Below, one piece after another: positions 44,276 to 59,986 of a stretch of DNA of 64,000 nt. The stretch is from an uncultured Verrucomicrobiae bacterium (lineage in GTDB: Bacteria > Verrucomicrobiota > Verrucomicrobiia > Chthoniobacterales > Chthoniobacteraceae). The translations under genes were made by a program, and so were the position numbers. Location: NCBI GenBank assembly GCA_963769025.1, contig CAVYKI010000012.1, positions 224,001-288,000 of the forward strand, in the 5' to 3' direction. The notes beneath the pieces are model-generated. The model did not search any database. It saw only the letters and a program-made list of their open reading frames with translations, and was not told where the DNA came from. Numbering within the stretch: position 1 is the first letter of the stretch; each line of letters starts with the position of its first letter.

Positions 44276-46036
44276 ATGACCCCTGCCGCTCCTGCTCAAA
44301 ATCCCGCCTCCACCGGCACGCGCGCGACCTTCACCGCAGCCGACGGCGAGACGCTGCAATACAAACTCTGGGCACCGCCGGGAAAATTCTCCCGCGCCCT
44401 CGTGCTCCTGCATCGCGGCCACGAACACGCCGACCGATGGGACACCGTGGTGCCGCACCTCACGCTGCCGGACACCGCAATCTTCGCATGGGAAGCACGC
44501 GGCCACGGCCAATCGCCCGGACGCCGCGGCCACGCCCCGGGGTTCATGGCCTACGTGCGCGACCTGGAAACTTTCGCGGATCACATCACCACGACCCACG
44601 GCGTGCCGCGGGAAAAAATGTCCGTCGTCGCGCACAGCGTCGGTGCGGTGGTCGCGGCAGTGTGGGCGCACGACTACGCGCCGGCGCTCGCGGCGCTCGT
44701 GCTTGCGACGCCCGCCTTCGAGGTAAAGCTCTACGTCCCCGGCGCACTCGCCGCCACACGGCTTCTTCTCAAGGTGAAGCCGGATGCCACCATCAAGAGC
44801 TACGTGAACGGAACCTGGCTCACGCGCGACGGCGCGGAACAGCGCGCCTACGACGCGGACAAATCCATTTCCAAGGACATCTCCGCGCGCATCCTCGTCG
44901 AGCTTTTCGACTCCGCCCAGCGCGTGATCGCCGACGCCGCAGTGATGACGCAGCCGCTGCTCCTCTTCTCCGCTGGAGACGACAGCGTGGTGAAGAACAC
45001 CGCGCACGAGAATTTTTTCCTCCGCAGCGGCGCGACGGTGAAGGAGCACATCGCGCTTCCATACGCGCGCCACGCGGTCTTCCACGATCTCTGCCGTGAG
45101 GAGGTGTGCGCCAGCATCCGCAAGTTCATCCAGGCGCAGCCCGACGGCAAACCCGCCTCGTCGCACGGCGACGAGCGCGGCCCGACGAAATACGAATACG
45201 ACACGCTGCGCCAGCCGCTCCCCGCGCTCTCGCTGAAAGGCCTGTTCTTTGCCGTGCAGCGCCTCTCCATGCAGACGATGGGGCAGCTCAGCGAAGGCAT
45301 CAGCATCGGCCTGCGCACCGGATTCGATTCCGGCGAATCGCTCGACTACGTCTATCGCAACGAACCGCGCGGATTCCCCGTGATCGGGCCGCTGATTGAT
45401 CGCGGCTACCTCAACGCCATCGGCTGGCGCGGCATCCGCCAGCGCCGCGAACTCCTGCGCGCCGCGCTCCAGCTTGCCGCTGCGTCCGTGCGCAAGGACG
45501 GACTCCCGCTGCAAGTCGCCGACATCGCCGGCGGCGCGGGACGCTACCTTCTCGATCTGCTCGGCTCACCCGAGGGCGAAGGTTTTTCCGCATTGTGCCG
45601 CGACCGCAGCGAGACCGCGCTCGCATGCGGCCGTGCATCCGCCGATGCGCTCGGCCTCGATGCGCGCATCACGCATGAAAAAGGCGACGCCTTCGATCCC
45701 GCATCCATCGCCACCATTGCGCCGCAGCCCGGCATCGCCGTCGTCTCGGGACTCTACGAACTTTTCCCCGCCAACGATCCGCTCCGCCGCTCGCTCGGCG
45801 CACTGCACGCGCTGCTGCCGCAGAAGGGCTGGCTGCTCTACACCTGCCAGCCGTGGCATCCGCAGGTCGAAATGATCGCGCGCGTGCTCACGAATCGCGA
45901 CGGCCAGCCGTGGATCATGCGCCGCCGCGCGCAGGGCGAAATGGATGCACTCGTGCGCGAAGCCGGCTTCACGAAGGCCGCGCAGTGGACGGACGACTTC
46001 GGCATCTTCACCGTCGCCGCCGCGCGCAAGCTGTGA
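44276..46036 (+). CDS. Bifunctional alpha/beta hydrolase - SAM methyltransferase (YnbC-like)
   Basis: HRGHEH, AHSVG nucleophile elbow, GFDSG.SLDYVY, DIAGGAGRY, VSGLYELF, QPWHPQ. Confidence 0.92.
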   Translation: MTPAAPAQNPASTGTRATFTAADGETLQYKLWAPPGKFSRALVLLHRGHEHADRWDTVVPHLTLPDTAIFAWEARGHGQSPGRRGHAPGFMAYVRDLETFADHITTTHGVPREKMSVVAHSVGAVVAAVWAHDYAPALAALVLATPAFEVKLYVPGALAATRLLLKVKPDATIKSYVNGTWLTRDGAEQRAYDADKSISKDISARILVELFDSAQRVIADAAVMTQPLLLFSAGDDSVVKNTAHENFFLRSGATVKEHIALPYARHAVFHDLCREEVCASIRKFIQAQPDGKPASSHGDERGPTKYEYDTLRQPLPALSLKGLFFAVQRLSMQTMGQLSEGISIGLRTGFDSGESLDYVYRNEPRGFPVIGPLIDRGYLNAIGWRGIRQRRELLRAALQLAAASVRKDGLPLQVADIAGGAGRYLLDLLGSPEGEGFSALCRDRSETALACGRASADALGLDARITHEKGDAFDPASIATIAPQPGIAVVSGLYELFPANDPLRRSLGALHALLPQKGWLLYTCQPWHPQVEMIARVLTNRDGQPWIMRRRAQGEMDALVREAGFTKAAQWTDDFGIFTVAAARKL

Positions 46037-46885
46037 GCGCCACGCGCGAAGCTGCCCTCACCGATCGCGGATTGCGCTGGCGCGGCCTCGCGTGGCTCGC
46101 GCTCTGCGGCCCGTGGTTCTTCATCGCCTACGGCTTTTGCAATTGGTTCACCGCGCAGCGCGCGCATGTCGGCACATGGTACTGGGAGTGGGAAAAGCAC
46201 GTCCCGTTCGTGCCCGAACTCATCGTGCCGTACTGGTCGCTCGACCTGCTTTTCATCGGCGCATTCGCTGCTCGCGCTGCCCGGCGGTGGATGGCTGTGG
46301 TTAGGCTGGCCCGCAATCGCGCTCGCACTCACGGCACTTGCGTACGCCACCGCAAATCCGCGTTGGCTGCAAAAATGTTCCGGCGCCCCGACACCCGCCG
46401 CCGAGTGGATCCTGCTGCCTGTCATCCTCATCTCACGCCTGTGGCAGATGCGCTGGCTGCGCCGCCAGCCCGCATGGCATGAATTCGCACCCGGCGTCTT
46501 TTTCGGCCGTCTGCTCAGCGACTCCGAAGCGCACGCTTTCCTCTCCACCCATCCGCACCTCGCCGTGATCGATCTCACCTCGGAGAGCAAGGAAGCCACA
46601 CCCTTCCGCGAGCACGCGCGCTACTTCCAAATCCCTGTCCTCGATCTCACAGAACCGGACGCGGAGACATGCCGGCAGGCGTGCGACATCATCCGTGAGC
46701 ACGCGCCGCGCGGCCCCGTCTTCATCCATTGCCTCCTCGGCCTCGGACGCAGCGCGCACATCGCCGCCGCATGGCTCCTCGCCAGCGGGCGTTGCGCCGA
46801 CGCGGAAGCCGCAGCAAAAGCCATCCGCGCGCTCGAACCACTCGCCGCGCTGGATGCCGACGCGCTGCGACGGCTCGGCGAATAA
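46033..46885 (+). pseudogene. YnbD-like PAP2 / dual-specificity phosphatase with internal deletion and frameshift near 46267
   Basis: N-terminus WE..VPF....IVPYWSLDL joins out of frame to the C-terminal half carrying HCLLGLGRS; the PAP2 catalytic segment is absent. Confidence 0.7.
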
Positions 46886-46956: not shown

Positions 46957-48345
46957 GTGCTCCCCGTCTCCCCCGCCATCATTCCCCCGCTCGATTCCGG
47001 CTTCGTCCCGGCCGTGCTCTGGAACCGCGAATTCCGCCGCCTGTGCGCCGCCGCATCCGAGCCGCTCGCACTCGCACTGGAACGACCGGATGGCACGGTG
47101 TCGCGCTTCGACACGCGCATCCTCCCGCACACCGGCGCGAACTGCGCGCTGAATTTCCGTTACGTCGAGCGTCTGGTGAAAATGCTGCTCTGGTCGCGCG
47201 GCGGATTCCGGCTGTTCGTCGGCGGAAATGCCGCCGTCGCGGACATGCTGCGCGCGACGTATTCGCCGGATGGCGAAAGGCACTTCGACTGCGATTTCGT
47301 CGGCACGAAAGTTTACGGGCGGCCTTTTGAGATCGTCACTTCGGAACTCGCGGAAGTGCCCGCGGAAAGGGCGGGCGCAATCCCGCTCGGGCGGCATCTC
47401 GACGGCTGCCGGATCGGCTTCGATCTCGGCGGCTCGGATCGGAAGTGCGCCGCAGTGATCGATGGCAAGGTCGTCTTTTCCGAGGAGATCGCGTGGGACC
47501 CATATTTCCAGAGCGACCCGCAGTATCACTACGATGGACTGAACGACACGCTGAAGCGCGCAGCCGCGCATCTGCCCCGCGTGGACGCCATCGGCGGCAG
47601 CGCGGCGGGCCTGTATGTCGCAAACGAAGTGCGCGCGGGTTCGCTTTTCCGCGGCGTGCCGCAGGAAGCTTTCGAGAAACGGATCCGGCGGATTTTTTTC
47701 GATCTCCAGCGGGAGTGGGGCGGCGTGCCGTTCGAGGTCGCGAACGACGGCGAAGTCACGGCGCTCGCAGCATCCATGAGCTTCGGAGAAAATCGCGTGC
47801 TCGGCGTGAGCATGGGCACGAGCGTCGCCGCCGGATACGTGACTGCGGACGGCGGCATGACGCCGTGGATGAACGAACTCGCATTCGCGCCCGTGGACTA
47901 CCGCGAGGATGCGCCGCTGGACGAATGGAGCGGCGACCGCGGCTGTGCAGTGCAGTACTTCTGCCAGCAGGGCGTCGCGCGGCTCGCACCGCTTGCCGGG
48001 CTCACGTTTCCGGCGGAGATGAAATTTGCGGAGCAGCTCGTCGAGGTGCAGCACTTGATGCGCGCAGGCGACGAACGCGCGCGGCGGATCTACGAGACCA
48101 TCGGCATTTGCTTCGGCTACGCCATCGCGCACTATGCGGAGTTTTACGACATCGGCACGCTGCTGATCCTCGGCCGCGTGACGAGCGGCGAAGGCGGCGA
48201 CCTGCTGCTCGCCAAAGCGGGCGAAGTGCTGCGCGTGGAATTCCCGGAACTCGCGGAGCGCATCAAGCTCCGCACGCCCGATGAAAAGGACAAGCGCCAC
48301 GGCCAGGCGGTCGCCGCGGCAAGCTTGCCCGCGCTGCGCAAATAG
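46957..48345 (+). CDS. ROK family sugar kinase-like protein with N-terminal extension
   Basis: IGFDLGGSDRK, IGGSAAG, VANDG, MGTS.AAG, NELAF, ILGRV. Confidence 0.85.
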   Translation: MLPVSPAIIPPLDSGFVPAVLWNREFRRLCAAASEPLALALERPDGTVSRFDTRILPHTGANCALNFRYVERLVKMLLWSRGGFRLFVGGNAAVADMLRATYSPDGERHFDCDFVGTKVYGRPFEIVTSELAEVPAERAGAIPLGRHLDGCRIGFDLGGSDRKCAAVIDGKVVFSEEIAWDPYFQSDPQYHYDGLNDTLKRAAAHLPRVDAIGGSAAGLYVANEVRAGSLFRGVPQEAFEKRIRRIFFDLQREWGGVPFEVANDGEVTALAASMSFGENRVLGVSMGTSVAAGYVTADGGMTPWMNELAFAPVDYREDAPLDEWSGDRGCAVQYFCQQGVARLAPLAGLTFPAEMKFAEQLVEVQHLMRAGDERARRIYETIGICFGYAIAHYAEFYDIGTLLILGRVTSGEGGDLLLAKAGEVLRVEFPELAERIKLRTPDEKDKRHGQAVAAASLPALRK

Positions 48346-49254: not shown

Positions 49255-50046
49255 ATGGAAATCATCATCCAACCCACTCCCGAAGCCGCCAGCATCATCG
49301 CGGCGCGCATCATCGCGAAGCTAGTCCGGACAAAGCCGGATTGCGTGCTCGGACTCGCGACGGGCAGCACGCCGCTCGCCACCTACCGCGAACTGGCACG
49401 GATGCATCGCGAGGACGGGCTCGACTTCTCGAAAGTGACCACCTTCAACCTCGACGAATACGTCGGACTGCCGCCGGACCACTCGCACAGCTATCACGCG
49501 TTCATGGATGAGCATTTTTTCCGGCACGTGAATGTGCCGCGTGCAAACATCCACATCCCGGACGGCATGGCGCGCGACGTGCCCGAGGAGTGCGCAAGCT
49601 ACGAGGCGGCGATCGTCGCGGCTGGCGGGATCGATCTGCAATTGCTCGGCATCGGCACGGACGGACACATCGGCTTCAATGAGCCGTCGTCATCGCTCGC
49701 ATCGCGCACACGCATCAAGACGCTCACTGAGCGGACGCGCGCGGACAATGCGCGGTTCTTTGACGGGGATCTCGCACGGGTGCCGTTTCACTGCATCACG
49801 ATGGGCGTCGGGACGATCATGGCTTCCCGCGAAGTGCTCATGCTGGCGTTCGGCGCAAACAAGGCCGCGGCGGTGGCTGCAGCCGTGGAGGGATCCATCA
49901 CCGCCATGAACCCGGCGAGCGTGCTGCAGATGCATCCGGTCGCGAAGTGCATCGTGGACGAGCCCGCTGCGGAAAAGCTCGCACGACGCGATTACTACCG
50001 CTGGGTTTTCAGCCACAAGCCCGAGTGGCAGCGAATCAGCGGTTAG
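49255..50046 (+). CDS. nagB: Glucosamine-6-phosphate deaminase
   Basis: LGLATGSTP, FNLDEYVGL, LGIGTDGHIGFNEP, TMGVGTI. Confidence 0.96.
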   Translation: MEIIIQPTPEAASIIAARIIAKLVRTKPDCVLGLATGSTPLATYRELARMHREDGLDFSKVTTFNLDEYVGLPPDHSHSYHAFMDEHFFRHVNVPRANIHIPDGMARDVPEECASYEAAIVAAGGIDLQLLGIGTDGHIGFNEPSSSLASRTRIKTLTERTRADNARFFDGDLARVPFHCITMGVGTIMASREVLMLAFGANKAAAVAAAVEGSITAMNPASVLQMHPVAKCIVDEPAAEKLARRDYYRWVFSHKPEWQRISG

Positions 50047-51820
50047 GCGGCGCGGCAGGCGGATTGGGCGGGGCTGGCGACGGTGGCGCGACCTCGTTGG
50101 GGAATGGGATCGACTTCGCTTTCCCTATGAGGCGGTAACCTTCCGACACGCGCACTTCGATTGAGTGCGTCCGCCCATCGCGGAGCCATTCGGGCAGTTC
50201 GGCGCGGAAGGCAATCGCCCCGTCCCCGTAGCCACGATCGCGGAGGTCGGCGCGTGGAAGTATGCACTGGGCGCGCGCGACCCACGCACCGTCGGCGTAC
50301 ACATCCACGATCGCCGGCACGCCGGCCTTGTCCTTTTGCCACACATAGCCGGAGATGCTGCGGTGGTCCGCTTCCTCGATCATCGCGTCGTACGCCGGCG
50401 GCGGCGGGGGCGTGAGACGCCCGCTGAAGAGCAGCATGCCGAGCGCGATGGCGTGGAAGGTGATGCCGATGTTCAGCGCGCGCCACCAAGGGCCGTCGCC
50501 CCACACCTTCGCCTGCTTGTTCCAGCGCGCGAAAATGTCGTAAGCGCACAGGAGCACGGCGTGGTAGATGCCGTAAACGATGTAGTAGAGGGTGAGGCCG
50601 TGCCAGACACCCATGAGGCCGAAGGTGAGGAAAAGGCCGAGGTAGCTAGCCGTGTATTTTCCCTTGAACCACTTGCCCTTCATCGCGGCGAGCTGGAACC
50701 GCATGTGGATGTGATCGCGGAACCAGAACGAGAGGCTGATGTGCCAGCGCGTCCAGAAATCGCGGATGTTCCGCGCGAGGAACGGGAGGGAGAAATTTTC
50801 CGGCGACTTGATTCCCATCAGCCGCGAGATGCCGACAGCGAAGGCGCTGTAACCCGCGAAATCGAAGAACAGGTAGAAGGTATAGACATACATGTAGCCC
50901 GCATAGCCCCAGAAGCCGGCGACTTTCAGCAACGGCACGCGCAGGTGGGCGTCGATTTCCGCCGCGATGATGAACTTGTAGAGGAACCCGCGCATCACGC
51001 GCTGGATCGCGAAGTCCAGGTCGTCGAGGAACTCAGCGCGCGTCCGGGTCTTCACCCAATCCTGGCCGAAGCGGCGGTACCGATCGATCGGGCCGGACGA
51101 AACGGTCGGAAGAAAAAACAGGAAGGCGAAGAGCTGCCCGGCAGAGAGCGATTTTACGACGCCGTCGCGGATGGAAAATATCACATCCAACGCGCGGAAG
51201 GTGACGTAGCTGATGCCGATGTAGCCAAAGACGTTCTCATGCGAGACGAAAGGAAGGAGCCTGTTCACCGTGAGCGGCAGCAGTGTGAGCAGGAGGGCCA
51301 CGACGAATGTCCGATTGGATTTCCAGCGGAGAAACAGGAACGGCACGCAGACCTGCCACGCCGCGCAGAGCAGAAAAAGATAGAGCGGCGAAAACTCGGT
51401 ACCGGTCGCCGTGGCATTCCACGGGCGGATCAGCGTCGCATCGCCAACCGCCGGCAGGTGCATACCCCCGAGGCGGAGAACGATGTTGTCGTGCTGCGCG
51501 AAGATGAGCGCGAGCATCGGAAGAGCGATGATGAAGCACCACCGGGCGCTCGAGTTTGCGAATGTGGCCACCAGGAGCAAAAAGAGCGGGAACGGCCAGG
51601 TCGCCCTCAACTCGTGCAAAAACTGAGTGAACGGTCCCAAGTCATTGATCGGGAACATCACCGCACTTGCCACGTTGATGACAAACGGAACACCGAGGAC
51701 GGCACATGCCATTATGGCGATGCGCCACAGGCGGGTCGGCGCGATGCCGATCACGACGATCGGCAGGACCACGTAGAGCAGCAGCAGGCCGAAGAACGTC
51801 CAGTTGGCAAATGGCGTCAT
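50036..51820 (-). CDS. dltB: DltB-type MBOAT acyltransferase with N-terminal insertion and extra C-terminal domain
   Basis: GISYVTFR, PTVSSGPIDRYRRF, YLFFDFAGYS, FWTRWHISLSFWFRD, MGVWHG catalytic His; operon context. Confidence 0.9.
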   Translation of the reverse strand: MTPFANWTFFGLLLLYVVLPIVVIGIAPTRLWRIAIMACAVLGVPFVINVASAVMFPINDLGPFTQFLHELRATWPFPLFLLLVATFANSSARWCFIIALPMLALIFAQHDNIVLRLGGMHLPAVGDATLIRPWNATATGTEFSPLYLFLLCAAWQVCVPFLFLRWKSNRTFVVALLLTLLPLTVNRLLPFVSHENVFGYIGISYVTFRALDVIFSIRDGVVKSLSAGQLFAFLFFLPTVSSGPIDRYRRFGQDWVKTRTRAEFLDDLDFAIQRVMRGFLYKFIIAAEIDAHLRVPLLKVAGFWGYAGYMYVYTFYLFFDFAGYSAFAVGISRLMGIKSPENFSLPFLARNIRDFWTRWHISLSFWFRDHIHMRFQLAAMKGKWFKGKYTASYLGLFLTFGLMGVWHGLTLYYIVYGIYHAVLLCAYDIFARWNKQAKVWGDGPWWRALNIGITFHAIALGMLLFSGRLTPPPPPAYDAMIEEADHRSISGYVWQKDKAGVPAIVDVYADGAWVARAQCILPRADLRDRGYGDGAIAFRAELPEWLRDGRTHSIEVRVSEGYRLIGKAKSIPFPNEVAPPSPAPPNPPAAPPNR

Positions 51821-51839: not shown

Positions 51840-53303
51840 CTACAGCATCTCCGCCAACTTCTTCCGGTCGGCCTTCCCGTTGTTGTTCATCGGGAAGCTG
51901 TCGAGGAAATGGAATTTCCGCGGCACCATGTAAGCCGGCAGCCGTTCCCCGAGCTGCGTCTTCAATTTTGCCGCCTGCTCGAAATCCGTACCCTGCTTCG
52001 CCCCGCTGAGGACGATGAACGCGGCAAGCGAATCAATCTTCCCGCCTTTCTGAACAGGGAGAACGACCGCGTCCGCGATGTCCGGCAGCGCGCGAAGGTT
52101 GGCCTCGAGATCACCAAGCTCGATGCGATGCCCGAAGAGCTTGATCTGGCTGTCCATGCGGCCTTCGCAAAATAGCATGCCGTCGCGGTCGCGGCCCCAG
52201 TCGCCGGTGCGATAGGCGCGCGTGTCGTCGATTGGGTAGAATGCCTTTGCCGTGAGGTCGTCCCGCTTGAGGTAGCCGGGGCTGACATTCGGGCCCGCGA
52301 TTACAATTTCGCCGCGCTCGCCGGGAGGCACGGCCTTGCCATCCTCGCCGCGGATGATGACGCGTGTGCCCGGCATGACGTAACCGATGGGCAACGGGTT
52401 CCATTGCGCGATGGTCTCGCGCGTGATGCCCACCTTCGTCATCGCGACGGTCGCCTCGGTCGGGCCGTAGGTGTTCCAGACCGGAACGCCCGGGAACCGT
52501 TCAAGCAGTTGCGACGCGGTCTCCGGTGCGAGCGTCTCGCCGCAAAAGTGGAACGCGCGCAGGTGCGGCATCATCGTCGAGTTGAAGCCCTTTTCGATCA
52601 TGCACATCTGCGCAAACGAGGGGGTGGTCATCCACTGCGTCGCTCCGCTGTTCCGCAGTGCCTCGAAAAGCGCGCGCAGGTTCGAGACGTGATCCTTGGT
52701 GAGGCTGAAGATCGTGTTGCCCGAGCTGAGCGCCAGGTAGATGTCGTGGACGGAGAGATCGAACGTGAACGGCGCGTGGTTCAGGAAAATCTCGCCACAT
52801 TCGCGGAAACCGCCGTCGCCGTGCATCCACGAGAGATAGTGGTTCAGGTTGCCGCGCGTGATCACCACGCCCTTCGGCTCGCCGGTGCTGCCGCTCGTGA
52901 AGAGGATGTAGAAAGGGTCGGTGTTTTCGAGGGGCTTGCGCCGGTAGTCCACCGCGCCCGCCGCCGAAATGATTTCGGCGACCTTCGCAGGCGTGAGGAC
53001 GACCTCGGCGCCGGCGATTTCGACCACGCGCTCCATGCGTTGCGCAGGAGTGGAATAATCGATCGGAACGTACGGCCGCCCGGATCTCACCGCGGCGAAG
53101 AAGCTCATGAGCATCTCCGGCTCCTTGTGCCCGTGCACTGCCACGGGGCTGCGCTTGTCGCCGAGCTGCGCGTCGAGCCATGCCGCGACCGCATTGCTTC
53201 CGGCGAGCAGTTCACCAAAGGTCATCCGCCGATCGTTGCTGACGTGTGCGAGACGATCGGGGGCCGTGCGCCCGTATTGTTCGATTTTGTCGAGAAGGTG
53301 CAT
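51840..53303 (-). CDS. dltA: D-alanine--D-alanyl carrier protein ligase
   Basis: YILFTSGSTGEPKGV, APFTFDLSV, FCGE, NTYGPTEAT, YRTGD, NGKADRK. Confidence 0.93.
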   Translation of the reverse strand: MHLLDKIEQYGRTAPDRLAHVSNDRRMTFGELLAGSNAVAAWLDAQLGDKRSPVAVHGHKEPEMLMSFFAAVRSGRPYVPIDYSTPAQRMERVVEIAGAEVVLTPAKVAEIISAAGAVDYRRKPLENTDPFYILFTSGSTGEPKGVVITRGNLNHYLSWMHGDGGFRECGEIFLNHAPFTFDLSVHDIYLALSSGNTIFSLTKDHVSNLRALFEALRNSGATQWMTTPSFAQMCMIEKGFNSTMMPHLRAFHFCGETLAPETASQLLERFPGVPVWNTYGPTEATVAMTKVGITRETIAQWNPLPIGYVMPGTRVIIRGEDGKAVPPGERGEIVIAGPNVSPGYLKRDDLTAKAFYPIDDTRAYRTGDWGRDRDGMLFCEGRMDSQIKLFGHRIELGDLEANLRALPDIADAVVLPVQKGGKIDSLAAFIVLSGAKQGTDFEQAAKLKTQLGERLPAYMVPRKFHFLDSFPMNNNGKADRKKLAEML

Positions 53304-53305
53304 GG

Positions 53306-53458
53306 CTAGAACTCCGCGTAAACAAACTCGGGTGTTTCGAAATTTCCGCGTCCATACATCGCCACCAGCACGGCGATGATCGCGAGGTAGTAGAGGGCCA
53401 ACAACGCAGGCCGTGCGCGGGGATGGGCCTCGAGCCAATGCTTTGCGGTCGAGATCAC
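53306..53458 (-). CDS. dltX: DltX-like single-TM peptide (50 aa)
   Basis: GTG start overlaps the dltC stop; LYYLAIIAVLVAMYG TM; C-terminal FVYAEF matches the DltX F-(I/V)-Y-x-x-F motif. Confidence 0.85.
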   Translation of the reverse strand: MISTAKHWLEAHPRARPALLALYYLAIIAVLVAMYGRGNFETPEFVYAEF

Positions 53459-53703
53459 GCTGCGAGGCGTTTTTGCACGTCGGCCACCATCTTCGCCGGG
53501 GTGGCCCATGCGTCACGGTCGAACTCCGCCGGGGAGATTTCCACGCCGATCTCCGTCTGGAGCGCGACGATGAGCTCCACCGTCTTCATCGAGTCGAGGA
53601 TCTGCAGATCGTAGAGCGCAAGGTCGGGGTTTGTCCGGACTTCCTCGGTGTCGGCGACGCGCGCGAGGACATCGATCACTTGTTCGTTGGTCGCTGTGGC
53701 CAT
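53455..53703 (-). CDS. dltC: D-alanyl carrier protein
   Basis: ILDSM phosphopantetheine Ser; EFDRDAWATP is characteristic of DltC. Confidence 0.93.
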   Translation of the reverse strand: MATATNEQVIDVLARVADTEEVRTNPDLALYDLQILDSMKTVELIVALQTEIGVEISPAEFDRDAWATPAKMVADVQKRLAA

Positions 53704-53736: not shown

Positions 53737-54930
53737 CTAGTGCGATTTCTTCTGTGGCTGGTGGTAGAAATCGTCAAGAACCTTGTTAAAAAGCATCCAC
53801 GCGCGCTCGCCTGGATGGTCGAGTTCGTCCGCAAAAAAGGTCGGGTCATCCTCATACTGGCTGAAGTACACGAGCTGCATTCCGTATTTGGACGCGAGCT
53901 CGTTCAGCCGCTCGCCATATGCCTTTCGCGCGGAAGCGGAGACCCCGGTCGTCTCGAGCGCCGGCCCGTGCAGCGGCATCGAGAGCAGCAGCGCGTCAGC
54001 CCGCATTTCCTTCAAAGTGCGCAACAGCAGCTCGAAATCCTCCCATTCGTCCGCCGCCTTCAGCGTTTTCAGGAAGGCCGCGTCGCGCGAGCCTTTCGGG
54101 AGCTTCGCCATGCGCGGCGCGATGGGTGGGCGCGTCGTCTTTACCTTCACGCTCGTCTTCCGAAGGATCTCCTTCCAATTCAATCCCGGGATGAGGTGCG
54201 GCTTCGGATCCTTCTCCTCGCTGTTCGCTGCGATGCGCAGCCCAGCCTCGATGTGATCCTGCGCGCGGCCCACGTAGTTCGTGAGTTTTCCGAGCGGCCA
54301 GAGCGCTGCGTACAGCGCGCGATCGAGCGTCGTGTCCCCCGCCAGTCGCCGCAGCCCGAACTCCAGCGTCCAGTTTCCCTCGATCGTCTCAGGGTACTCC
54401 ATCATCCGCCGCGCCGCGTCGCGCTTCAGCCCGGGGCCGAGATGCGTGCTGAATGCAAGCTCCCGCGCCTGGAGCACGCTGAAATTCCCCTCGTAGTAAC
54501 CCTGGTTCAGTTTCTCGGTGAAGAAGTAGGTTGGCGAAATCGTGAATGCGACTTTGCGGTCCGCGATATAGTGCCCGACCGATGCGATTTTCTGCATGAT
54601 CGCCAGCGAACTCGTGCCAGGCTTGCCGACCTCGAAGACGCGGAAGCCGGTCGGGAACGGCTCGAAGAAATCCACCGCCTTGGTCGGCACGCGCGGGTCG
54701 CTTCCCAGCTCCGAGCTCCCGTATAGCACGAGCAGATCGGGCTGCGCGAAGGCAGTTTTTTGAAGCGCGACCCCCTGCAGTTTCAGGTCACTGCGTTCGT
54801 TCGTCAGGTTGAGGATAAAGCTCTGCTCGGCCCGCGCGCACAAAAGCACGGCTGCGAGCGCGGAAACCGCGGCGACCCCACCTGCGATGGTGAATGCCTG
54901 AAGATGATGGTGCGTCGTGGGGGCAGTCAC
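53737..54930 (-). CDS. dltD: DltD D-alanyl transfer protein (SGNH-like; start uncertain)
   Basis: N-terminal TM, LYGSSEL, G..GT.SL, ISP.YF, EWEDF.LLL, D..HPG. Confidence 0.88.
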   Translation of the reverse strand: MTAPTTHHHLQAFTIAGGVAAVSALAAVLLCARAEQSFILNLTNERSDLKLQGVALQKTAFAQPDLLVLYGSSELGSDPRVPTKAVDFFEPFPTGFRVFEVGKPGTSSLAIMQKIASVGHYIADRKVAFTISPTYFFTEKLNQGYYEGNFSVLQARELAFSTHLGPGLKRDAARRMMEYPETIEGNWTLEFGLRRLAGDTTLDRALYAALWPLGKLTNYVGRAQDHIEAGLRIAANSEEKDPKPHLIPGLNWKEILRKTSVKVKTTRPPIAPRMAKLPKGSRDAAFLKTLKAADEWEDFELLLRTLKEMRADALLLSMPLHGPALETTGVSASARKAYGERLNELASKYGMQLVYFSQYEDDPTFFADELDHPGERAWMLFNKVLDDFYHQPQKKSH

Positions 54931-55068
54931 GGAGGGAAAATGGAATGGGGCATTAAACTCAACGATGCCGGGTGGAGTCAATCATGCCCCGAAACTCGCA
55001 CGGATGCTTCATGCCGGACCCGCCTTGCGCTGCGAGGCAATACGGTGATACCACCCGCTCCATCCGCC

Positions 55069-56187
55069 GTGCGCATCCTGATCGCTCCCGACAAATTCAA
55101 AGGTTCGCTCTCCGCTCCCGCAGCGGCGCAGGCGATCGCCCACGGCGTGCGGGCTGTGTGGCCTCATGCACACCTCGATTTTGCACCCATCGCCGACGGC
55201 GGCGAGGGTTTTGCCGAATCGCTCGCGGTCGCGCTGGGTGCCAAGTGGGTGACCGCCGCCAGCCAGGACGCCATAGGCCGGCCGATCGAAGCGCGCTACG
55301 CGTGGGTGCCGGAAGAATGCCTCGCAGTCATGGAAATGAGCGAAGCCAGCGGGTTGCACCGGCTAGGGAAAAGCGAACGCGATCCGCGGCGTGCCGACAC
55401 ATTCGGAACCGGGGTGCTGCTCGCGCATGCCGTCGCACGCGGCGCCCGGCGGATTCTCATCGGTCTCGGCGGAAGTGCAACGACGGATGGCGGAGCGGGG
55501 ATGGCGCGCGCGCTCGGTTACCGGTTCCTCGATCACGACGGGCGCGAGTTCCCCGCGCTCCCCGGCACGCTGGCCATGCTCTCCCGCATCGAACGTCCGC
55601 CGGGTCTCCGCTTGCCGGAAATCGTCGCCGCGTGCGATGTGCAAAATCCCCTTCTCGGCGAGCGAGGCACGGCCCGTGTCTATGCACCGCAAAAAGGGGC
55701 GGATCCCGGCACGGTCGAATTTCTCGAAAAATCCCTGTCGCGGCTCGGCGAGATCGCCACCGCATGCCTGGGTTGCGACCATCGTGCCGTCCCCGGAGCC
55801 GGAGCCGCCGGCGGCCTGGGATATGGCTTGCTCACCTTTTGCGGCGCCTCGATCCGCCCCGGATTCGACATGATTGCGGAGACACTGCGCCTCGAAGGGC
55901 GCATCGCCGCGGCGGATCTGGTGATCACCGGCGAAGGACGGATTGACGATCAGACACTCGACGGCAAAGGGCCTGCCGGAGTCGCCGCGCTTGCCCGCAA
56001 AGCCGGAAAGCCCGTGATCGGATTCGCTGGCTCCGTCACAGCCGCGGCGGAAAGCGCAGGGGTTTTCGATGCCATCATCCCCATCGCCGAAGGACCGCTC
56101 ACGATCGACGACGCGATGCGCCAAGCTGCCGTCCTTCTTGAACGCGCTACCTGTCGCGCCATGAGTCTGCTCCGCCTCAGGGTGTGA
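55069..56187 (+). CDS. Glycerate kinase
   Basis: ILIAPDKFKGSL, ADGGEG, GLGGSATTDGGAG, GAAGG, TGEG.ID.QT..GK. Confidence 0.93.
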   Translation: MRILIAPDKFKGSLSAPAAAQAIAHGVRAVWPHAHLDFAPIADGGEGFAESLAVALGAKWVTAASQDAIGRPIEARYAWVPEECLAVMEMSEASGLHRLGKSERDPRRADTFGTGVLLAHAVARGARRILIGLGGSATTDGGAGMARALGYRFLDHDGREFPALPGTLAMLSRIERPPGLRLPEIVAACDVQNPLLGERGTARVYAPQKGADPGTVEFLEKSLSRLGEIATACLGCDHRAVPGAGAAGGLGYGLLTFCGASIRPGFDMIAETLRLEGRIAAADLVITGEGRIDDQTLDGKGPAGVAALARKAGKPVIGFAGSVTAAAESAGVFDAIIPIAEGPLTIDDAMRQAAVLLERATCRAMSLLRLRV

Positions 56188-57705: not shown

Positions 57706-59986
57706 CTAGTTTTCCGGGACAAGCTGGATGACATCAATCGCGACATTCCCATCCGCAGGCCCATCGCCAACGATCACGACCGCCGGCTTGCCCGGTTCAA
57801 AGCGGAACTTTCCGAGGCTGACAAAACCTTTCTCCATCGGAGCGGCGACCCGCTCGTTTACCATCAGCTTCTTCGCGCCGTCGGCAGACTCGATCGTCAC
57901 GGGCGCCTTGGTCGCACGATTCTCGTGCGGGCTGTAGCTGAGGCGCACCTCGTAGGAGCCCGCCTTCTCAATCTTGAACTCATAGCGCGCCGCCCCGGTT
58001 TCCTTTGCCCCGCGGTAGCGGTAGCCATCTCCATAATAACCCGGCAGCCCGTGCCCCTCGGCCCATTTGCCGGTCAGCTTAGCCTGGCTGTCGTCGAGCA
58101 CCAGACCCGGCAGCGACTTCACCGGAATTCCCGGTGCGGCATCGTGCTTGTCACCCGGAGGGGGCGCGAGCGGCTGATAGTTTGCGGGGAGCGCAGGCGT
58201 GTCGTTCACCGTCGCCCGGCGAGCTGCGCCCGGCAGGCGCATCAGTTCCTGCAGTTCGGTGAAATAGCGTTCATAGATGTCGCGCGGCATCACGTCGCGC
58301 TTCACGCAGAGGCTCGCGGCCTTGCCGACGACTTCGCCGATCATGCCGCCGGTCTTCATCACGCGGACGGTGCCGAGCGCCTCGTGAGTCACGCTCACGT
58401 TTCGGCCGGCCATGAAGAGGTTCTCCACATTCCGCGAGTAGAAGCAGCGGTAAGGCACCGGGTAGCCGTGCTTCCGGTCCACGCCCTTTCCAAAGACCGC
58501 CTTCGAGATGAACGGGTCGTCCTTTGCCACGCCCTTGGCGTACTGCTCCTTGGGATAATGAAGATCGATGTCCCACGTCGTAGGCACGGTCGCATCGGGA
58601 AATTCCTTCTTGCTCACGATGTCATCCTCCGTGAGCAGGACATCACCCATCAGCTGCCGGCTCTCACGCGGCCCGCCGATGTAGGCGACCCACTCGAGCT
58701 TCGCATTCGCATGCTCGGCCTTTGCCGCCACGGTTCTTCATCGCGTTGAACGCACCGTATAGCGCGCGGAAATTCCAGTCGCGCATGTCCTCCAGCCCGA
58801 GGATGGGATGCTTGTTGAATCCGCTCTCCCAAAACCACTGCGCGTGAAAGCGCTGCGGATACGGGAAGTCCTCCATCTCCAGCGGCAGCGCCCACGGGGT
58901 TTCGGGAAATGCGGACGGCTGACCCGTGTCCTTCCACCGCCACATGTTCGACATGCCGAGGTGCTCGGTTTCGCGAATCGTGTGATCCGCCCCTGCGAGC
59001 ACGCCGATCGTCGCATGCCCCGTCGCGTCGCAGAAAAGCCGCCCGGCGAAACGGCGCTTCATGCCGGAGCGCACGTCGAGCGACACCACCGCGGCGATCC
59101 GCTGCTTGTCCTTCATCTCCACGGCGATGACGCGGTTGTTGAAAAACAGCGTGATGTTTTTCTCCGCACGCACGACCGCCTCCTTCTTGGCGTCGCCAAA
59201 TTCCTCATACGTCCCCGGCGACAGCTTCGCGGTGTCCTGGAATTCCTCCACGATCTCGCCGAGGTTCGGATACATCCCGCGCCGCGTGCCGCCCATCGCC
59301 CACACGCGGACTTCGCTCGATCCATTGCCGCCGAGCACCGCGCGATCCTGAACCAGCGCGACCTTGCATCCCATGCGCGCCGCGGAAATCGCCGCCGCCG
59401 TGCCGCCGTAACCGCCGCCGATCACCACGAGATCGAACGTGCCAGCCTCCTCCGGCTTTTCCGGCAGGCCCAGCATGTCGTGCCGCCAGCGATCGTTGGG
59501 GTCATTCGAGTTCGGCGGAGTGAAAGCGGCGTCCTTCGTGAAGAAAATCGCGTCGCACCGCCCGGCAAATCCCGTGAGATCATGCAGCGCGAGCAAAACC
59601 TCCGGCTTTGTGACCTCGACCGTTCCCCCGTTCTGCCAGGCCCACACCTTGCCCTTCGTCCCAAACGTCTCCGCGAGCGGCTTCCCATCCACCATCACCT
59701 GGAATTTTCCCGGCGTGCCGGGCGCATTCCAGCGCGCCACCCAGTCCATCGTGCGTACCCACACGTGATATTTGCCAGTGGCGGGAAATTTCACCGTCGT
59801 GGTCGCATCCTTCACCGGCTCGCCCATGCCGTGCGCAAGCAGGTACGGCGATCCCATGCTGTCGATGAACTGTGTGTCGAGCGACCAGCCTCCGAGGTCG
59901 TGGAAGCTCTCTGCTTCTACAAAAGCCTGGTCGGCTGCGAGGGCGGTGCCGGCGAGAGCGGCGGCTGCGAGGAGGATTCGGATCAT
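57706..59986 (-). CDS. Exported FAD-dependent oxidoreductase with C-terminal CBM/xanthan-lyase-like domain (frameshift near 58730)
   Basis: DLVVIGGGYGG, LGGNGSSE, DATG, RESR.L.G, PYRCFYS.N..NL.MAGR, RVM.T. Confidence 0.88.

Follow-up and report, generated by a model that had tools for sequence, protein, structure and literature searches.

To our knowledge, D-alanylation is well understood for the teichoic acids of Gram-positive bacteria alone, and the targets of dlt systems in diderm and other non-Firmicute bacteria are largely obscure. Here we describe the C-terminal end of DltB, the membrane enzyme of D-alanine transfer, as it is encoded by a soil verrucomicrobium. The dltB gene lies in a stretch of 64,000 nucleotides (GenBank assembly GCA_963769025.1, contig CAVYKI010000012.1, positions 224,001 to 288,000 of the forward strand), which we refer to as the window; coordinates are counted from its first letter.

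Published work describes DltB as a tetramer (PMC11035591) that forms complexes with DltX and DltD (PMC11035591, PMC12148441). Its chain starts with an N-terminal helix on the extracellular surface and continues with transmembrane helices 1 to 10 (TMH1-10), the turn between TMH9 and TMH10 being intracellular, and His336 (catalytic) and His289 are key residues of the Streptococcus thermophilus enzyme (PMC11035591). Other bacterial MBOATs carry the acyl-shuttle motif FXYXXF, which they place at the periplasmic face by means of two added transmembrane helices that are absent from DltB (PMC12148441). Loci resembling dlt are already known from Gram-negative bacteria (PMC4448142). A full-text literature search that did not cover the main mechanistic paper returned neither an immunoglobulin (Ig)-like extension of DltB nor a recurrence of such an extension on DltD. 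DltB itself, the dlt operon and Gram-negative dlt-like loci are thus already known; what seems new at the locus described here is an Ig-like end that we place outside the cytoplasm.

DltB and its C-terminal module

As judged from profile matches and gene content, the window carries a complete dlt operon of a diderm member of the Chthoniobacterales (order dltD-dltC-dltX-dltA-dltB, all on the minus strand), and its DltB is an intact MBOAT D-alanyl transferase. The protein scores 395 bits against TIGR04091, the NCBIfam DltB equivalog (cut-off 375), over residues 146-469; the match spans profile positions 55-380 of 380 and so reaches the end of the profile, with positions 1-54 unmatched. Pfam MBOAT is matched by residues 218-435 (E 1.4e-17), and the S. 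thermophilus DltB chains 6bug_C and 8jem_A align to residues 138-469 in phmmer (E ~1e-79). H407 and H360, which align opposite His336 and His289 of that enzyme, are both invariant in 29 relatives, and DltA, DltC, DltD and DltX are all encoded alongside. The gene and protein are laid out as follows.

50036..51820, minus strand: dltB, 594 amino acids, stop codon at 50036-50038 (from the list of open reading frames and the translation)
51410..51820, minus strand: N-terminal region, residues 1-137, with four transmembrane helices predicted from hydropathy
50414..51409, minus strand: MBOAT/DltB core, residues 138-469 (from the phmmer alignment), with the last transmembrane helix at about residues 444-465 (helix 444-465 in the AlphaFold2 model)
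50396..50413, minus strand: linker T470-PPPPP475 (from the translation)
50090..50395, minus strand: C-terminal beta-sandwich module, residues 476-577, 102 residues (from AlphaFold2 and fold searches)
50039..50089, minus strand: Pro-rich tail, residues 578-594, 17 residues, APPSPAPPNPPAAPPNR (from the translation)

An initial annotation, made from the letters of the window alone, had proposed an extra C-terminal part of DltB beyond the last MBOAT helix and a PPPPP linker, at positions 50036-50415. Both the claim and the interval are right: the match to canonical DltB stops at residue 469, and the interval holds the stop codon and residues 469-594. In the linker, 29 sequences agree fully on P474 and P475 and almost fully on P471-473. 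The Pro-rich tail varies in length and sequence between relatives, is almost gone in forms of ~518 amino acids, and has a low predicted local distance difference test score (pLDDT) at the end of the whole-protein AlphaFold2 model.

Folded alone by AlphaFold2 from a 50-sequence alignment, the module gave a confident model of seven strands and a single short helix (pLDDT 95.4, predicted template modeling score [pTM] 0.86), and in the whole-protein prediction (29 sequences) residues 480-570 were likewise all-beta at pLDDT 80-90. The model forms a two-sheet sandwich of about seven strands and about 100 residues, as in Ig and fibronectin type III (FnIII)-like domains. A Foldseek search against the PDB yielded nothing at E<=1e-3, only generic Ig-type rows. 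When the model was run with VIA-align against 48161 PDB representatives, the best match (Z 8.1, root mean square deviation 2.7 Å over 87 residues) was the C-terminal FnIII-like domain of the glycoside hydrolase family 3 (GH3) glucosidase DesR, followed by FnIII, Ig and filamin domains at Z 6.5-8; 459 PDB representatives reached Z>=5. The modeled fold class, an Ig/FnIII-like beta-sandwich, is therefore clear, with no specific relative singled out. The annotation had called the segment beta-rich and Ig-like, and on both counts the all-beta model agrees with it.

Sequence searches assigned the module to no named family. The last 137 residues of DltB matched nothing in Pfam or NCBIfam at E<=1, and a PDB sequence search with the module returned chance hnRNP rows only (E>=0.36). 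The ESM Atlas gave unnamed clusters at 0.94-0.96; the nearest named one, Big_7 at 0.84, is a lead only. Big_7 (PF17957) gave no Pfam match at E<=1, and when the family profile was compared by hhalign with a single Big_7 segment, from protein P0114, the probability was 0.13. Positions conserved family-wide in the module are G491, W494, V505, R523, D525, L526, G532, G534, F538, P543, D548, G549 and H552. With a net charge of -2 the module is mildly acidic, and the DltB-attached copies have a median isoelectric point of 5.6. The idea that its net charge points to polyanion binding is therefore not supported.

Topology places the module on the outer side of the membrane. With its N terminus outside and ten crossings, DltB must end outside; and because two added helices are what bring FXYXXF into the periplasm in other MBOATs, the end of DltB itself, which lacks them, should be periplasmic. 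The charges around the last helix point the same way: the loop before it is basic (R432, K435, K438, R447) and the stretch after it acidic. No transmembrane segment is predicted after residue 469, and no FXYXXF occurs in residues 470-594. The N terminus is ~90 residues longer than that of the TIGR04091 profile and of canonical DltB. Within it lies a 60-residue insertion (residues ~27-86; window 51563-51742, minus strand) with two extra predicted transmembrane helices, found in DltBs of ~600 amino acids and missing, as a 60-column gap, from 10 of the 29 aligned relatives (~518 amino acids); since the insertion holds two helices, it keeps the parity of the topology. We infer that the module is periplasmic and shares its side of the membrane with the funnel of DltB, the acyl-shuttle tyrosine of DltX and the DltD active site.

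The fusion is conserved among close relatives. A region-restricted search found 28 other clusters, one of them named Chthoniobacteraceae, all combining an MBOAT with the module (54-78% identity in the module part), and across the DltB clade of 29 sequences the module aligns without insertions or deletions. We also collected 16 related loci from metagenome-assembled genomes labelled Chthoniobacterales, Spartobacteria, Chthoniobacteraceae, Verrucomicrobiae, Verrucomicrobiaceae and, in one case, Prosthecobacter sp.; the module profile matched 13 of the 15 that contain the 3' end of dltB, the other two being Verrucomicrobiae DltBs of 49-52% identity. At E<=1e-60, DltB was found in 25 of 29 genomes of the same genus and, among the other genera of the GTDB family, in 3 of 7 genomes. 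All but one of these 28 matches extend to query residue 565 or beyond, and the 28th ends at a contig edge. Only one other family of the order gave a match (2/2 genomes, 49% identity), which stops at residue 474 or 488. In a phylum-wide sample of 401 genomes, the source genome among them, only MBOAT paralogues at 30-36% identity were seen, which is uninformative on the fusion.

These data already contradict the view that the extension is an artefact, namely a neighboring gene joined by misassembly or frameshift, or else a decaying remnant, and we regard this view as hardly credible. Its single weak foothold is a higher rate of divergence in the module than in the core: near relatives share 59-70% identity in the module and 75-82% in the core, and more distant ones 42-51% and 58-67%. 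Against it, 13 related loci and 27 genomes carry the extension in frame and free of stops, the model of the module is very confident and its alignment free of insertions and deletions. Moreover, nagB lies downstream, convergent with and overlapping the end of dltB, so that there is no space for a separate gene. The annotation had asked whether the fusion is kept in related DltBs and had named a sequencing error as the alternative; the in-frame fusion in 27 of 28 same-family genome matches answers the question and speaks against the error. Taken together, we are highly confident that the module is real, folded, conserved and periplasmic.

Recurrence of the module and its possible role

From its context, the module may act as an arm in the periplasm and there engage either the D-alanine acceptor or the glycan layer of the envelope bearing that acceptor, near the DltX-DltD transfer site; we give this a probability of roughly 0.4. 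Such an arm would hold the acceptor close to the site of transfer from DltX to DltD and would stand in for membrane-anchored lipoteichoic acid, which Gram-positive systems reach directly; relatives would lengthen it with more copies and, in some, with a glycan-binding Lcl_C head. The initial annotation had suggested, in a similar vein, that the extra part could recognize a non-teichoic acceptor. We count in favor of this role the periplasmic side, the recurrence of the module on DltD, the Lcl_C cap, and the glycan-enzyme and secreted partners of the module. The source genome encodes LpxC (311 bits), and no PF04464 (TagB/F-type transferase) was found in this genome, which is 83% complete; the host is therefore a lipid A-making diderm, in which canonical wall teichoic acid is an unlikely acceptor.

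Module copy number varies among DltB relatives. With the two-copy DltB of metagenome locus L034 as query, 3986 proteins were found at E<=1e-30. Of the best 120 of these, 98 carry the module (once in 54, twice in 42 and three times in 2) and 22 lack it, a list skewed to fused forms since the query itself contains modules; source names among these 120 include Chloroflexia, Herpetosiphon, Candidatus Binatia and Chthoniobacterales. In 24 of the same 120, PF07603 Lcl_C lies distal to the modules (three proteins checked), a domain that binds sulphated glycosaminoglycans through a positively charged surface (PMC11162425). The Lcl_C-capped DltBs fall within P0264-P0300 and measure ~820-847 amino acids, comprising DltB, two modules and Lcl_C at the extracytoplasmic end. 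Among metagenome dlt loci, which were collected mainly by a DltD pattern, five have a module-bearing DltB (one copy in L019/L020, L069 and L077, two in L034).

The same module type occurs on DltD. A search with P0076, a DltD bearing three copies, gave 81 clusters of the DltD family that are 424 amino acids or longer, of which 15 carry one to three C-terminal copies at the extracytoplasmic end; three more module-bearing DltDs were seen in the Pfam scan of the module family, and one DltD-fusion locus, L018, which is incomplete, in the metagenome scan. Three pairs of module-bearing DltD and DltB have longest contigs of equal size, P0183/P0312 (96421), P0186/P0289 (50804) and P0188/P0287 (6671); the two proteins of each pair probably share a contig, and both may lie in one operon.

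The relations among copies were examined in a midpoint-rooted FastTree tree of the ~100-residue domain, which sampled 18 of 38 DltB, 27 of 27 DltD and 140 of 459 other instances. Fifteen of the 18 DltB-attached modules form one clade (support 0.895); the pair from L034 clusters with modules attached to DltD, and that of L020 sits in another part of the tree. The tree, which is indicative only, suggests that the module was joined to DltB independently at least two or three times. A joint Dlt-specific subfamily of modules found no support, the DltD-attached modules being intermixed with others.

The presence of one module type on both DltB and DltD could also be read as protein docking, with the module holding DltD, DltX or neighboring DltB protomers and so stabilizing the DltB-DltX-DltD complex, in which DltD would otherwise be tethered in the periplasm solely by its membrane anchor. 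The three fused pairs hint, unverified, at operons in which like modules could pair. However, DltD of the source genome has no module, and no second copy was detected in that genome either by single-sequence search or with the family hidden Markov model over 40148 six-frame open reading frames, so that homotypic pairing would here be possible only between DltB protomers. We consider docking improbable. A complex prediction for DltD residues 55-414 with the module, run without controls, scored 0.00 and weighs neither way.

Beyond Dlt proteins, the module belongs to a large family. A phmmer search with the 102 residues against 1.84 billion protein representatives gave 1205 proteins at E<=1e-3; 269 of them reach E<=1e-10 and 20 reach E<=1e-30. 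A single protein holds as many as 15 module stretches, and a profile search bore out the tandem copies. A disordered segment with no homologues, which the initial annotation had named as refuting its claim, is at odds with these numbers and with the folded model. We scanned 119 of the best 150 members with Pfam, leaving out 31, mostly longer than 1300 amino acids. The partners among these 119 were He_PIG (14/119), type IX secretion system (T9SS) sorting tails (Por_Secre_tail, 13/119), glycosyltransferases (GT2/GT1, 9/119), DltD (5/119), methyltransferases (4/119) and, in one protein each (1/119), MBOAT, sulfotransferase, radical SAM, SASA and GDSL; further partners were M23, M10, M12B and S8 peptidases, alginate lyase, GH42, ricin lectin and beta-propellers. 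At least 25 of the first 53 members scanned have no Pfam family at all, as do more among the other 66. The family is thus promiscuous in its domain partners, rich in secreted and glycan-handling proteins yet not solely extracellular. That modules of this type are attached to glycan enzymes, as proposed in the annotation, holds for the GT2/GT1, methyltransferase and sulfotransferase proteins, with SASA, GDSL, DltD, alginate lyase and GH42 in addition.

The main rival of an acceptor-engaging arm is a passive stalk or spacer, a module with no ligand of its own that only makes the complex longer or more rigid on its periplasmic side, projecting the Pro-rich tail (or, in relatives, the Lcl_C head) or setting the distance of the Dlt complex from the peptidoglycan. 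Variable copies on DltB and on DltD (one to three), the tandem arrays, as long as 15 copies, of proteins that carry T9SS sorting tails, the separate binding domain placed distal to the modules in the Lcl_C-capped relatives, and fold matches to the FnIII/Ig linker modules of glycoside hydrolases and to filamin all fit a stalk. In the protein studied here, however, nothing folded lies beyond the module, so that a spacer would project just the 17-residue tail, and charged and aromatic positions that are invariant in the DltB clade (D506, Y508, D510, W513, R527, K567) exceed what a pure spacer needs. We thus hold a stalk to be rather unlikely.

Several observations also weigh against the arm itself. 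The mild acidity of the module disfavors non-specific binding of an anionic polymer. Copy numbers of one to three, and arrays up to 15 in T9SS proteins, are typical of spacers. The fold matches are generic, VIA-align's own guidance describing Z 7-8 as common among unrelated beta-sandwiches. In the whole-protein model the membrane part is poor (mean pLDDT 53.7, pTM 0.34), which makes the position of the module relative to the funnel unreadable. The module is missing from 15 of the 20 metagenome loci whose dltB end is complete, as well as from the two nearest DltBs outside the family. Finally, the module occurs on apparently cytoplasmic enzymes as well (GT2, methyltransferase, radical SAM), which ties it to no single compartment or ligand.

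A broader form of the periplasmic-arm reading, which we put forward as doubtful, would have a D-alanylation system that is widespread among diderm and other non-Firmicute bacteria choose its acceptor by means of an arm made up of the module, its additional copies and the Lcl_C head. A specific anionic envelope glycan, be it the core or O-chain of lipopolysaccharide, a capsule or some other polymer of the periplasm, would be captured by the arm and passed to DltX/DltD; if so, the acceptor could be predicted from which type of domain is appended, and the domain on its own could serve as bait to identify it. Whichever role applies, one to three copies of a single unnamed beta-sandwich stand at the extracytoplasmic end of many such DltB and DltD proteins, and some of these proteins have a known glycan-binding domain as a cap. 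The module is a candidate new domain family, with more than 1000 cluster representatives and no Pfam model. It also offers a comparative marker by which dlt systems can be sorted by architecture, and residues 476-577 are a concrete soluble bait for finding the acceptor.

The dlt operon and its surroundings

Upstream of dltB in the direction of transcription, the operon contains the following genes.

51840..53306, minus strand: dltA, D-alanine--carrier protein ligase, 488 amino acids from the MHLLDK start; NF003417 528 bits (cut-off 476), AMP-binding 6e-72
53306..53509, minus strand: open reading frame of the microprotein DltX; PF12459, E 6.6e-6, 26 bits (cut-off 25), residues 29-67
53455..53703, minus strand: dltC, carrier protein, 82 amino acids; NF003464 87.6 bits (cut-off 68), PP-binding
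53737..54981, minus strand: dltD, SGNH-like transferase, up to 414 amino acids, start uncertain; Pfam DltD 1.1e-41, residues 65-407

The same gene order is seen in 11 related loci. DltX has one transmembrane helix, and its C-terminal FVYAEF fits the acyl-shuttle motif FXYXXF; it is kept in 13 related loci, including both of those whose DltB has no module, and ends there in FVY[AQ][EG]F. The stop of dltX overlaps the start of dltA by one base. The start of dltX is uncertain, codon 9 of the long reading frame being a stop in one relative. DltD scores 135.8 bits against TIGR04092, under the cut-off of 150, and has no C-terminal extension. In other non-Firmicute metagenomic dlt operons, two or three consecutive DltD paralogues are often encoded (three each in L030 and L039, and further runs in L041, L049, L052, L058 and L069), which could mean several acceptors per system.

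Two further MBOAT paralogues, ~32% identical to DltB, are encoded in the genome (G000:C3:866453-867238 and G000:C9:433032-433559); the first lies within an open frame of 630 amino acids and may carry an extension too. Downstream of dltB, besides nagB, lie a PIG-L deacetylase gene and a reading frame at 46957-48345, which gave no Pfam match at E<=1e-4 and which we take to be of ROK type. Upstream, and divergent from dltD, is a glycerate kinase gene (54760-56187, plus strand) with a third-position GC content (GC3) of 0.70, against 0.79-0.83 in its neighbors. Several long spurious reading frames overlap it on both strands; two of these, 55363-56124 (minus strand) and 54972-55946 (plus strand), appeared conserved and were rejected as wrong frames over this gene. 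Elsewhere in the window, an alpha/beta hydrolase (Hydrolase_4) is fused to Methyltransf_20 (44276-46036, plus strand) and is followed by a membrane-associated dual-specificity phosphatase-like protein (46166-46885, plus strand). At 57706-58731 (minus strand), the C-terminal part of FAD_oxidored is joined to Golvesin_C, in a reading frame that may extend upstream or be split.

Comparison with described acyltransfer systems

The DltB described here shares with canonical Gram-positive DltB (S. thermophilus, 6BUG/8JEM) the MBOAT core at ~138-469 and both key histidines, and its operon shares with the canonical one the partners DltA, DltC, DltD and DltX with its FXYXXF end. The two enzymes differ at both termini. 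Canonical DltB ends a few residues past its last helix, whereas 125 residues (PPPPP, beta-sandwich, Pro tail) are added here, and the N terminus is longer here by two extra helices; the host, too, differs, in being a diderm with LpxC.

MBOATs of the PatA/AlgI/WssH type likewise extend their C terminus to deliver something at the periplasmic face (PMC12148441). Their extension, however, consists of two transmembrane helices with FXYXXF, and that of the present DltB of a soluble Ig-like domain; DltB thus does not carry an acyl-shuttle extension, and the motif sits on the separate DltX as FVYAEF. OatA-type AT3-SGNH fusions also join a membrane acyltransferase to an extracytoplasmic C-terminal domain (PMC12148441), but there the appended domain is a catalytic SGNH transferase; the domain added to the present DltB is a non-catalytic beta-sandwich, and its SGNH partner DltD forms a protein of its own. 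The FnIII/Ig modules of glycoside hydrolases (GH3 DesR, 4I3G; CbhA Fn3, 3PE9) are likewise seven-strand sandwiches of ~90-100 residues on carbohydrate-active enzymes, at 10-15% identity to the DltB module and Z 7-8. The dra (dlt-like) locus of Bordetella pertussis (PMC4448142) offers a likeness at the level of the whole system, being a Gram-negative dlt-type D-alanylation locus whose target is a component of the outer membrane and not teichoic acid.

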